From Reclinomonas americana ATCC 50394 (taxonomy: Eukaryota), in assembly GCA_048213135.1 (NCBI GenBank), contig PS015265.1, positions 23,461 to 58,531 of the forward strand: a stretch of 35,071 nt of DNA, written 5' to 3'. The notes below the pieces were generated by a model that worked only from the letters and a program-made list of their open reading frames with translations, searched no databases and was not told where the DNA came from. A program made the position numbers and the translations under genes. Shown piece after piece: positions 719-35,071 of the stretch (within the stretch, counting starts at the first letter, position 1; every line of letters begins with the position of its first letter).

Positions 719-3700
719 ACGAGAACGAAATCGCCGTGCCAGTGTTGCTGGTCACCGCAAAGTTGGTCTGGTCGTTCGGCACCTGGCCCGTCAGCACGTT
801 GTTGTTGAGGCCGTTGCCGATGATGCCGTCGCCAAAGGTGGCCTGAGTGGTCGACGTGCCAATGCCGTTGATGCCGCGCACATCGACAAAGTAGTTGGTG
901 GCGTCAGTGAGGCCGCGGATCACAGCCTGCTGCACCGAGGTGGTGTTCTGGGTCAACGTGCTCGCCGTAGCCGCGCGCCACGACACCTGCCACTGGTACA
1001 CGAAGCCCTGGCCGCCAGTCTCCTGCGGCTGTCCCCAGCTGAGCCAGATCGAGGTCGAGCGCTTGAGCAGAAGGTTCGAAGACAGCGACATGATGCCGCT
1101 CGGGCGCACCGGCGACGTGGCCGTGGTGATGGTGATGGCCGACGCAGACCAGGCAGTCTGGTAGCCGTTGAACGACGACACGCCAATGCGATACTTGGTG
1201 TTGGAGCTGAGGCCGTTCACCAGCAGCGACGAGGTGGTCGAGCCGAGCGAGCCAGTGAACTGAGTCACAAACGAGTCCGGCACGAAGGCAGTCGAGGTGA
1301 CGTTGGTCAGGTTCTGCACCAGCACCTGCACGCCGACAAAGTTCGCGAAGCCGTCCGAGGTGGCCAGTGAGTACTGCGTGCCCACCACCGTCGAGGGGGT
1401 CGACAGCGTGAAGGTGGCGTAGCCGGAGCCAGTCGTGCCAGCCGAGCCGCCAGTGGTCAGAGCCGGCAGCGGGTACGGGCGCACAATCGAGTTGGCAATC
1501 TGCGACAGAGTGCCCGACTGAGCACCGTTCTGCGTCGAGGTCACACCAGAGTCCGAGCGGGTGTTGGTGGCCTGCACGGCGTAGGTGTACGACTTGCCCG
1601 GAATGGTCGGGAAGTTGAAGTTGGTGGTCAGCGTCGTCCACGTGTACGTGCGGTTGCAGTTGCTGGTGTTCTGCGTCACAACGTAGCCGTTGATCGAGGT
1701 GCCGCCAATGCCAATCGGCGACGCCCACGAGATGCTGGTCATGGTGTCCTGGTAGCAGTTGCCAGAGAAGCCCACACCGAGGGTACCAGCCACAGCAGCG
1801 CAGCCGGCGCTCGAGTTGGTGCCCTGCGAGTTCGCAATACCAGCAGCGAGCGTTGGGGCGGCCGGGGCGATCGGAGCATCGTCTGTGTGGTGGAGGAGAA
1901 GGGAGGCAGCGGTGGATGAGATACTCATACTCAAAAGAAGCAGATGGTTCCCTTCTCCCTCTCCCACTACCACTCCCCTCTCCTCTCCTCTCCTCTTTCT
2001 TTCCCTTTCCCTTCCCTCCCCCCTCCCCTCCTTTCCCCCCCTTTCACGCAACTGGTGTTGTGAGTGGTCTGAGTGATCGGGCCAGCAGCCGTGGCCGAGT
2101 TGGTCGACGTGGCAGTGGCGTACACCTGGTACGTGTACGACGTGTTGGCCGTCAGCGTCGTGTCAGCAGTGTAAGCGGCGGTGGTCGCCCATCCAGCCGG
2201 CAAGGTCACCGTGCCCACAGACACCGGGGTCGCGCTGCCCTGGCCGCGGAAGATAGTGAACACCGTCACCGGGTTGGAACCGAAACTCTGCGGAATCGTC
2301 CACTGCAGGAAGATGTTGGTGAGGCCGTACTGCGTCACGACCAGGCTGGTCGGCGGGTTCGGCACGACACCGGTGGCAGCCGGAGTGGTGAAGTTGATAG
2401 CAGTGCTGAACGCGCACGTCACCGGGTTGGCGGTGGTGCCAGCCGGGTTGAAGGGCGAGGTCGGGAAGGCAATCGAGAACTGGTTGCTGGCGCAGATCTG
2501 CAGGTTGACCGAGGTGCCAGCCGGCAGGCCAGTCACGTCAATGTAGTAGGTCGACAGGTTGTTGCTCCACGACGCCGCAGCGCCAGTGCCGTTGGTGGAC
2601 GGGATGGAGCTGGTGTCAATAATGACGGCAGAGCCGGCAGTGGCAGCAGTCACCGACGAGGCGCTGGTGGTCGAGTACACCACTCGGTAGTTGGCGACGT
2701 TCGGAGTCGGCGTCGTCAGGTTGCTCTGCGTGGCGCTCGAGGTGGCGGTGTTGGAACCGCCGACGCTGATCGGAGTCGAGAAGTTGAGGCGCACGCCAGT
2801 CGAGAACAGGCGCGAGTACGCCACGTTGGTGGGCGCAGCCGGCACAGAGCCGTTGTTGTCGGTGGTGGCCTGGATGGAGCCGGCCGCCGAGGCGGTGGTG
2901 TTGTTGTTCACAGTGATCTTGGCCTTGACAGTGTACTGCGTGGCAGCCACAAAGTTGTTGGCGGTGCCGCTCACAGTGAAGCCGGTGATCTGCTGGTAGA
3001 AGCCAGAGTTGTATGAGAACAGGCCGTAGAACGAGGTAGCGATGGTGCCAGCGCCAGTCGCGCCGGTGGTGATGGCAGGCTGGTCAGTGCTGGCGTTGGT
3101 CACCGTGTAGGCGGCAGTCGGCGCAGCGGTGGTGTCGCCCGTGCCAAAGGTGGCCGGGTAGTTGAAGGCGACGACAAAAGACGTCGAAGAGACCTGGTCC
3201 ACAGAGCCAGTGTACGGAGCCACAGTGTAGCCAGTCGGCGTGGCCGGCGCACCCGACGCCAGAGTCACCGTCACGGCAGTCGAGAACGTCAGGCTGGCAC
3301 CGTTGGCACCCGGAGTGCCGCTGCCGTTGTTGTAGGCCGTCGAGATGGCGCAGCTGGTGCCAGTCAGGCCAGTGACCTTGACGAGCACGCGGTTGCGCGA
3401 CAGACCAGCGCTGCCGGCCTGGATGCCGAAGTCGGTCAGGTCGGCAATGGTGGTGACCACCGTCACTGCACCGGTGCCGCAGTCCGACTTGACGTACCAA
3501 GACGGAGCACCGCCAATCACGCCCACATTGGCCGCCACACCCTCCCACTCCACCCACGCCGAAGTCGACGTGACGTAGCGCAGGTTGGACGACAGCGTCG
3601 GCGCCGCAGTCGACACCTTGGTGGCATCGGTGCCGCTGGTGGTCAGAGTGCCGCTCCAGGGAGCAGCCGAGCGGTTCACCTGCGACTCAGTCCACACGTT

Positions 3701-34391: not shown

Positions 34392-35071
34392 GTTGCGTTT
34401 AATAGGGGAAAGGGAGGGATTGGGAAAAGGAAAGAGAGATTAAGAGAGAAGGGTAGGAGAGAGGAAAGGAGACAGAGGGAGAGAGAGAGAGAAAGCAAGG
34501 AAGATAGAATTTACTCTCATTCTCTCTGTCTCTCTTTCTCTCCCTTTCTCCTCGCCCTCTCTTTCTCGTCTCTGCTTCCCACTGTCTCTTTTTTTCACTC
34601 TTGTCGCCTTCATTGTCTTTCTGTTTTCTTTCTTTCTGCTCTTATCTTGCTCCTTCTTCTCTGTTTCGCTCCACTCTCTTCTTGTTCTTTGCTCTCTTGC
34701 TTTGTTTGCTCTGTATCTCTTTCACTCTCACTCCATTTCTCTTCCTGTTCTCCCTTTCTCTTCCCTGCTTCTCTCTGCTTCCTTTCTCTCTCACTCTCCA
34801 TTCTGTTCTCTCTCTCTATCACTTCCCTATTCTCCATTTCATCTCTTACTTTCCTTCTGTTTTTCTCTGTCTCTCTCTCGCTCACCCGCTCTCTCTCACA
34901 CTCTTTCCTTTCTTCGCCTTTTCTCTCATTCTCTCTTTTATCTACTCTCTCCCTATCGCGCGCGCTCTCTCTCCCTTGTCTTTCATCCCTCTTTCCTCCC
35001 TCCCCTCCCTCTCCCTCTACTCCCTCCCCCTTGCCTCTCCCTTTCCTCACCCTCTCCCTCCTCCCTCTTCG

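Follow-up and report, generated by a model that had tools for sequence, protein, structure and literature searches.

In the stretch of contig PS015265.1 of Reclinomonas americana ATCC 50394 analysed here (35,071 bases, hereafter the window), introns begin in one of two ways, either with an ordinary donor of the form G/GTNNGT, in which the slash marks the cut, or with a donor that opens with GTTG, mostly as GTTGCGT. The window is GC-rich eukaryotic nuclear DNA with seven N gaps. Exon models were built without recourse to the donor list of an initial annotation of the window, with coordinates taken from the sequence and checked by script, and six models yielded 36 complete introns and one further donor (34392), with no internal stop in any model. 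All donor statistics given below refer to these 37 donors from one 35-kb window, whose boundaries are predicted here from the DNA sequence; single-exon WD40 copies, an ankyrin open reading frame (ORF) and all possible untranslated region (UTR) introns are excluded from the counts. The genes to which we refer are the following.

8023..719, minus strand: gene A, a giant protein with a signal peptide and then a large fn3-containing repeat region (Pfam fn3)
18721-23125, plus strand: gene C, a multi-pass membrane protein
23681-26232, plus strand: gene D, with a FAM221 domain in its C-terminal half (E = 3.1e-11)
27742-28530, plus strand: gene F, a GNAT acetyltransferase
30807-32815 and 33295-34391, plus strand: gene G, a PH domain and an AGC-type kinase (Pkinase E = 9.4e-21), split by an N gap

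The GTTG donors, with the last exon base given as position -1, are these.

2046..2052, minus strand: GTTGCGT, gene A intron 7, -1 A, phase 1
4129..4135, minus strand: GTTGCGC, gene A intron 6, -1 A, phase 1
6342..6348, minus strand: GTTGCGT, gene A intron 5, -1 T, phase 0, immediately past an fn3 match
6888..6894, minus strand: GTTGCGT, gene A intron 4, -1 T, phase 0
7088..7094, minus strand: GTTGCGT, gene A intron 3, -1 T, phase 0
18733..18739, plus strand: GTTGCGT, gene C intron 1, -1 A; the first exon has only 12 nucleotides (nt) and this is the least secure model
22357..22363, plus strand: GTTGCGT, gene C intron 7, -1 C
25013..25019, plus strand: GTTGCGT, FAM221 gene intron 3, -1 C, phase 2
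25233..25239, plus strand: GTTGCGT, FAM221 gene intron 4, -1 A; junction codon Glu, where relatives have Asp or Glu in 37/39
25336..25342, plus strand: GTTGCGT, FAM221 gene intron 5, -1 T; the next residue is Tyr
26020..26026, plus strand: GTTGCGT, FAM221 gene intron 9, the sole verified GTTG donor with -1 G
28060..28066, plus strand: GTTGAGT, GNAT gene intron, -1 A; the Acetyltransf_3 profile resumes from 94 to 96 over the junction
34392..34398, plus strand: GTTGCGT, after the kinase exon ending ...YEMLTGL, -1 C; the acceptor lies beyond the window

The ordinary donors are distributed as follows.

7918..7924, minus strand: G/GTGAGC, gene A intron 1
7503..7509, minus strand: G/GTGCGT, gene A intron 2
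18935..22910, plus strand: ten donors of gene C, all with -1 G (18936 GTGAGT, 20121 GTGTGT, 20284 GTAAGG, 20435 GTTTGT, 20590 GTGAAA, 22462 GTAAGT, 22561 GTGAGT, 22693 GTTTGT, 22805 GTGAGT, 22905 GTTTGT)
23728..23734, plus strand: A/GTGAGT, FAM221 gene intron 1, an ordinary donor without -1 G
24868..25786, plus strand: four donors of the FAM221 gene, all with -1 G (24869 GTGCGT, 25421 GTGCTT, 25677 GTACGG, 25781 GTGTGT)
30850..33700, plus strand: seven donors of the PH/kinase gene, all with -1 G (30851 GTGCGT, 31012 GTTTGT, 32022 GTTTGT, 32148 GTTCGC, 32632 GTTTGT, 33476 GTCTGT, 33695 GTTCGT)

Of the 26 ordinary and 15 GTTG donors that the initial annotation had counted, 24 and 13 were recovered, two of each class not being reproduced. 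The classes are mixed within genes (ordinary plus GTTG: 2+5 in gene A, 10+2 in gene C, 5+4 in gene D and 7+1 in gene G), and the ordinary donors 25421, 25677 and 25781 were confirmed through alignment with FAM221 relatives. The support for the junctions of genes A and C consists of the frame (and acceptor).

Among these donors the last exon base separates the two classes almost completely. As the annotation had proposed, -1 G is near-universal in ordinary donors and mostly absent from GTTG donors, being present in 23/24 of the former and 1/13 of the latter (Fisher exact p = 8.8e-8). The only ordinary exception is indeed the AGA/GTGAGT donor at 23729 singled out there, and among the GTTG donors only 26020 has -1 G, the remaining letters being A in five, T in four and C in three cases. 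The split is also seen with gene A left out (21/22 ordinary against 1/8 GTTG, p = 3e-5), at homology-checked junctions only (5/5 against 1/5, p = 0.048) and after adding the uncounted candidates 18621 (-1 T) and 26502 (-1 G), which brings the GTTG class to 2/15 (p = 1.7e-7). The annotation had listed both 26020 and 26502 as GTTG donors with -1 G; the first was verified, while the second reads GTTGCGA, lies past the ankyrin ORF stop and lacks support from Pfam. The frequency of 1/13 does not fall significantly short of the background, a G preceding GT in 28.5% of exonic cases (binomial p = 0.13), and the GTTG exon end is accordingly unconstrained rather than G-avoiding: -1 G is neither enriched nor significantly depleted.

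On the intron side the relation is reversed. Ordinary donors are loose at +3 (G 12, T 8, A 3, C 1) and +4 (A 8, C 7, T 9), in line with the initial description, and more uniform at +5 (G 22/24) and +6 (T 19/24). The GTTG class comprises three words (GTTGCGT 11, GTTGCGC 1, GTTGAGT 1), with T at +3, G at +4 and G at +6 in 13/13 and C at +5 and T at +7 in 12/13. A GC core is found in 12/13 GTTG donors versus 4/24 ordinary donors (p = 1.1e-5). Ordinary introns are mostly in phase 1 (13/24, with 9/24 in phase 0), so that the required -1 G is the first base of a codon, and GTTG introns are mostly in phase 0 (9/13; Fisher p = 0.09). That about a third of the introns have a GTTGCGT-type start with a free exon end, while the others require -1 G, points to two modes of intron-start recognition within the same cell.

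The heptamer itself behaves as a splice signal. GTTGCGT occurs 12 times in the window against 5.2 expected, a number reached in 0/100 shuffles, and 11 of the 12 copies are modelled donors on the sense strand with frame-compatible exon ends, the twelfth being the candidate at 18621; none lies inside a modelled exon. Six copies of GTTGCG followed by A, C or G stand unspliced within modelled exons, one of them in a FAM221 exon colinear with relatives, and the GTTGCGC donor at 4135 is the sole modelled donor of the form GTTGCG[ACG]. Since these copies are left unspliced and 0/10 GT[ACG]GCGT heptamers are donors, both +3 and +7 belong to the signal. No conservation was found at +8 to +12 of GTTG introns. 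Shifted forms of other common hexamers, counted over both strands and with some copies antisense or intergenic, are modelled donors in 0/5 (GTTGTGT), 0/7 (GTTTTGT), 0/1 (GTTTCGT) and 1/9 (GTTGAGT) cases. With these hexamers mostly not used and the GC core so unevenly distributed (12/13 against 4/24), the general compensatory two-register code that the annotation had envisaged is not borne out. GTTGCGT or GUUGCGU as a donor consensus was not found among the literature matches listed, supplements being outside the scope.

The position of the cut was assessed by homology and frame. We aligned the gene D model pairwise (local) with 80 FAM221 representatives, and the alignment is continuous over the GTTG junctions 25233, 25336 and 26020. 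At 25336, where the gene D model gives Tyr, 43 relatives span the site, with Tyr in 23, Leu in 9, Phe in 8, Trp in 2, His in 1 and Asp in none; Asp is the residue that a G/TT cut would produce. At 28060 the Acetyltransf_3 profile covers positions 54-94 in exon 1 and 96-136 in exon 2 with Tyr at 96, and the G/TT cut would again introduce Asp, at a position following an R-G-x-G/A motif that we take to be normally hydrophobic or aromatic. Mild support comes from 26020, where the Leu of the model is shared by 10/24 relatives and another 2/24 have Val, and the Pkinase profile ends exactly at the exon end 34391. In addition, an in-frame CAG/ or TAG/ acceptor is present in 12/12 GTTG introns, and a G/TT cut would need AGN/ acceptors. 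The cut is thus predicted to lie before the GT and not after its G, and cleavage at G/TTGCGT, raised in the annotation as the contrary case, is disfavoured by the lack of Asp at 25336 (0/43) and by the 12/12 acceptors.

These data also bear on the idea that the GTTG class is an artefact, with boundaries off by one base (G/TTGCGT...AGN/) or with stretches that are not introns. In its favour, the boundaries are read from DNA, and at 6894, 25013 and 25233 both cuts lead to the same protein: the messenger RNA is identical at 6894 and 25013, because the exon past the acceptor begins with G, and Glu is kept at 25233. The absence of stops across all models, the continuity of domains over the junctions, the Asp that a shift would create where 43/43 relatives have Tyr, Leu, Phe, Trp or His, and the displacement of the CAG/ acceptors used by all other introns speak against it, and we regard this explanation as largely refuted here and extremely improbable. 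As the annotation had held, the class is real and not a modelling artefact, with open frames and domain continuity restored by intron removal.

The closest FAM221 relative of gene D is a metagenome protein of 186 residues (P0121), colinear with it over four intron positions. At the place of intron 26020 it has a 30-residue insert starting VSA after ...RPVDSE, which looks like a read-through intron with an ordinary donor of the GAG/GTGAGC type; the P0121 locus was not found in metagenome contigs.

Apart from the donor, the two classes of introns share their features. GT and AG ends with the frame kept on removal were found in 12/12 complete GTTG and 24/24 ordinary introns, and the acceptor is CAG in 23/24 ordinary and 10/12 GTTG introns (33/36 overall), the remainder being TAG. 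A branch-like CT[CGA]A[CT] motif is present 10-34 nt upstream of the acceptor in 19/24 ordinary and 9/12 GTTG introns; over all 36 introns it is mostly CTCAC, also CTGAC and CTCAT. Common branch motifs are CTAAC and CTGAC, and by comparison the middle C is unusual. Intron lengths do not differ between classes (p = 0.51), GTTG introns measuring 57-237 nt. On these models, GTTGCGT introns belong to the ordinary (major) spliceosome as true GT-AG introns and carry a second 5' signal, one that is purely intronic. Like U12-type introns they form a minority, have a rigid donor word within the intron and make no demand on the exon, but they differ in donor word and branch box and in having 3' signals equal to those of ordinary introns. 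A U12 assignment was rejected, the donor not being [AG]TATCCTT and no TCCTTAAC branch box occurring in the last 25 nt of any GTTG intron.

A recent gain of introns, in which a mobile or reverse-spliced family inserted at arbitrary exon sites and brought its own GTTGCGT, would explain the exon end as one that was never selected. The unconstrained exon context agrees with such an origin, as do the phase 0 position of 9/13 GTTG against 9/24 ordinary introns (p = 0.09), the shortness of every GTTG intron and the colinearity of P0121 over the four gene D intron positions, although this protein is possibly RNA-derived. Nevertheless, an all-against-all blastn of the 36 introns gave no match between any two GTTG introns past the heptamer, positions +8 to +12 are not conserved and the 3' signals are generic. 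The lack of common sequence beyond the heptamer argues against young mobile copies, and introner or transposon-derived copies were rejected on this ground; we consider recent gain improbable.

In order to describe how GTTGCGT could be read, we computed ViennaRNA pairing energies with the standard U1 end AUACUUACCUG (from PMC4856993), pseudouridine and the U1-C protein being ignored. Ordinary donors pair well, with a mean of -5.5 kcal/mol when forced into the canonical register and a free optimum of -7.0 kcal/mol. For GTTG donors the means are +4.6 (canonical), +1.8 (shifted), +3.7 (bulged) and -1.2 kcal/mol (free optimum). In the register calculations called for in the annotation, the shifted register beats the canonical one in 9/13 GTTG donors and is negative in only 4/13. 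A hypothetical U1 with G at position 5 brings the GTTG mean to -5.3 kcal/mol, mostly by pairing U3 to U7, with ordinary donors at -7.4 kcal/mol. Sliding the GTTG donors by one position aligns their T3, G6 (13/13) and T7 (12/13) with T2, G5 (22/24) and T6 (19/24) of the ordinary class, and their -1 letters (A 5, T 4, C 3, G 1) resemble the ordinary -2 letters (A 10, T 7, C 5, G 2).

The explanation that we rank first, and hold as a tentative one that may well prove wrong, is that a U1 whose 5' end is non-standard reads the donor at an offset of one nucleotide. GTTGCGT would be read one nucleotide out of register relative to ordinary G/GTNNGT, its +1 G occupying the U1 slot (C9) normally held by the exonic -1 G, its +2 U facing C8 unpaired, and U3-G4-C5-G6-U7 filling the slots of +2 to +6. 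This offset geometry would cost two pairs, so that only a perfectly matching core would be tolerated, which would account for the rigidity of the GTTG class, whereas the ordinary class, anchored by -1 G, +1 G and +2 U, can be loose at +3/+4. The invariant +5 C leads us to expect G in its U1 partner, and the U1 of Reclinomonas americana would then carry G (perhaps with an adjacent C) where standard U1 has two pseudouridines, as is reported for Mastigamoeba (ACGUAC), and the G-U contacted by U6 would be moved one position away from the scissile bond. The annotation had already placed the +1 G in the U1 slot of the exonic -1 G, a proposal that finds partial support; the invariant +3 T and the missing enrichment of -1 G fit this part, and the shifted duplex is unfavourable with standard U1. 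A U1 with G opposite the +5 C, or a dedicated U1 variant, would be needed. Extended to the whole genome, the reading becomes one of two 5' splice-site modes, in which roughly one third of introns would be recognised by GUUGCGU one nucleotide out of register, through a remodelled U1 or a dedicated U1 variant, with their exon ends freed; we put this forward as a possibility about which our doubts are considerable.

Several observations weigh against the offset reading. Pairing of GTTG donors to standard U1 is poor in every register, the shifted one being negative in the minority already mentioned, and the energies were obtained without pseudouridine and U1-C. GTTG -1/-2 are weakly like ordinary -2/-3 (a gain of 2.7 bits over background), and a shifted copy of the loose ordinary code would vary much more than the GTTG class does. 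C is found at +4 in only 7/24 ordinary donors (A 8, T 9), and with G5 a U1 would therefore be mismatched to a third of these donors. A search of the window for small nuclear RNA (snRNA) genes, U1 included, gave none at gathering scores and only low-complexity hairpin look-alikes at E <= 5; with no U1 gene in the window, the required U1 change is a prediction and not an observation. Finally, homology fixes the cut site at two junctions only, and five GTTG donors of this single window come from the repeat-rich gene A, where three share CT/GTTGCGTC and two share CCA/GTTGCG and, given these common flanks, are possibly not independent.

Some of the same results would fit a dedicated recogniser, either a second U1 variant with the 5' end ACGCAAC, fully complementary to GUUGCGU, or a sequence-specific protein, with standard U1 serving G/GUNNGU; the exon end would be free because seven intronic pairs suffice. 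That the GTTG class is nearly one word (GCG core in 12/13) beside a loose ordinary class, that shifted forms of other ordinary hexamers are unused and that standard U1 pairs poorly in all registers all count in its favour. Variant U1 genes exist in humans, and in the excerpted text of a preprint (10.1101/2022.06.08.495308) Physarum is said to have a modified U1 besides the standard one. On the other hand, no such RNA was seen in the snRNA search of the window, GTTGAGT (28060) and GTTGCGC (4135) are used despite their mismatch to the perfect complement, and the two classes share both their genes and their 3' signals. We consider a dedicated recogniser rather unlikely.

No special register would be involved if information on the exon side and on the intron side simply compensated for each other, with U5 loop 1 set against the U6 ACAGA box or with a bulged U in the U1 duplex: seven fixed intronic letters would dispense with -1 G, and four to five fixed letters would require it. 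Such plain compensation explains the absence of -1 G equally well, and two 5' splice-site classes with anti-correlated U5 and U6 potentials are described in plants and animals in the portion of PMC10581693 that cites Parker et al. (2022). The best intronic match (GTGAGTGAGT) belongs to 23729, the one ordinary donor that lacks -1 G, and the lack of significant -1 G depletion in GTTG donors (p = 0.13) points in the same direction. What compensation leaves unexplained is the G-T lying one position further from the cut in the strong class, the obligatory +3 T and fixed +5 C, and the occurrence of two discrete words instead of a continuum; moreover, forcing a bulge on the duplex with standard U1 gives an unfavourable mean of +3.7 kcal/mol, and -1 G would remain an advantage in that register. 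We judge this explanation unlikely.

The bulge +2/+3 register was rejected as such on the basis of the -1 G count (1/13), the 0/10 GT[ACG]GCGT donors and the forced-bulge mean of +3.7 kcal/mol. A non-specific bulge at +3 is ruled out because +3 must be T, and since a bulge would leave U1 C9 free for -1 G, the absence of -1 G enrichment fits the shifted register. In Table 3 of PMC4856993, this register (Roca et al., 2012) is predicted for 68 human sites. GU-U-GCGU can be written as GUGCGU plus one extra U, but a bulged register keeps -1 G paired and would accept any +3 base, whereas here -1 G is unenriched and +3 is T only.

Known noncanonical U1 registers are rare exceptions in human genes. 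According to the sections of PMC4856993 consulted here, shifted and bulged registers were validated in human cells and the validated noncanonical registers together make up about 1.5% of 201,541 human 5' splice sites. The shifted register (Roca and Krainer, 2009) is cited in PMC4856993, with the example oligo ACA/GUCAAGUAUA, and in PMC9311317. As presented in these excerpts, human shifted-register sites are like the GTTG donors in that +1 G takes the U1 slot of -1 G, the consensus is displaced by one nucleotide and cleavage occurs at GU. They are unlike them in being rare (the figure of about 1.5% covers all noncanonical registers) compared with 13/37 donors here, for which the register is a predicted one, and in having an AAGU core, the core here being GCGU, which pairs poorly with standard U1. 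The classes of Parker et al. (2022), as summarised in part of PMC10581693, likewise combine exon-strong, intron-weak sites with the reverse in one genome, but within one register and as a statistical trend, in contrast to a single offset heptamer and a near-absolute -1 split (23/24 against 1/13).

Lineage-specific donor words that co-evolved with the U1 end are also reported for Archamoebae: excerpts of the preprint 10.1101/2022.06.08.495308 give a U1 end AACAAAC with GUUUGUU in Entamoeba and ACGUAC with GUGCGC in Mastigamoeba. In both that group and the window there is an extended donor word with a conserved seventh position, and G at U1 position 5 would pair the fixed C; the Archamoebae described there have one donor consensus per genome, and here two classes coexist. 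As the donor words differ, membership in Archamoebae is not indicated. Relative to the known systems, what differs is the scale (13/37), the single discrete heptamer, the offset and the near-absolute split at -1.

If true, the offset reading would provide a natural system for studying how an additional nucleotide separating the cut from the paired core is accommodated by U1, U6 and the catalytic centre. It would test whether snRNA 5' ends or variants can split an intron population, and it would show how a freed exon end alters coding constraint and intron phase (phase 1 in 13/24 ordinary and phase 0 in 9/13 GTTG introns). Gene finders with one donor model would miss or misplace a third of Reclinomonas americana introns.

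Two candidate introns remained uncounted.

18621..18690, plus strand: candidate 5'UTR intron of 70 nt, GTTGCGT ... CTCACTCACAG, -1 T, for which no frame check is possible
26443..26502, minus strand: candidate 60-nt intron with the donor TGG/GTTGCGA of the initial annotation, an in-frame stop and a CAG acceptor

The first resembles a 5'UTR intron because it starts 100 nt upstream of the gene C start and has CTCACTCACAG 70 nt on, and the second was left uncounted because it lacks domain support. Around the latter, past the ankyrin ORF stop on the minus strand (26330-26590), there is an open frame ...SVPKDIRNLIRQCW that continues after the possible 60-nt intron as RPQATRVSASYVLDELRRL; it is reminiscent of the C-terminal end of a kinase domain, yet gave no Pfam match.

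In the FAM221 gene, a micro-exon of 15 nt (25406-25420, YKSHE) lies between a GTTGCGT intron on one side and a GTGCTT intron on the other; its residues match the conserved YK.H motif of the relatives, and it was validated by pairwise alignment. An extra exon at 25079-25130 was rejected because a 35-nt intron would remain, and the direct splice from 25012 to 25167 is in frame. The FAM221 exon retrieved the 80 representative relatives and had one match in a word-index search; the sole named protein among ten FAM221 matches looked up was from the brown alga Discosporangium mesarthrocarpum (47% identity, too low to indicate a lineage). A search of the protein collection with the 707-residue exon of gene A gave no match among longer proteins, GNAT exon 2 gave one weak, irrelevant match against solved structures, and the WD40 paralogue search returned generic matches only, at no more than 55% identity. 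Judging by the gene A and WD40 searches, proteins of the organism itself seem to be missing from the protein collections.

The WD40 paralogues form a tandem array on the minus strand (8400-18000) of at least five single-exon copies, some of them partial. ORFs lie at 9528-10610, 13678-14745, 15256-16374 and 16878-17966 in addition to partial copies, and each ends ...CDPQLCL. A long purine-rich (GGAGAAGG)n tract, on the plus strand, precedes every copy, and upstream of each there is a conserved GTGAGGACG, a candidate 5'UTR donor with -1 A or C; if these are donors, they would be further exceptions to the -1 G rule.

Introns often open with a purine-rich stretch followed by a pyrimidine-rich run able to pair back, as at 34392-34640, 31308-31469 and 1880-2056. 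The fold of 34392-34640 has an energy of -99.3 kcal/mol (z = -2.5 against shuffles), and such stretches give spurious microRNA and small nucleolar RNA look-alikes in Rfam at loose thresholds. In the intergenic region 29930-30420 a unit in which GAATTCGAATTCG-like palindromic words abound recurs several times beside short conserved blocks, possibly as a repeat family or satellite.

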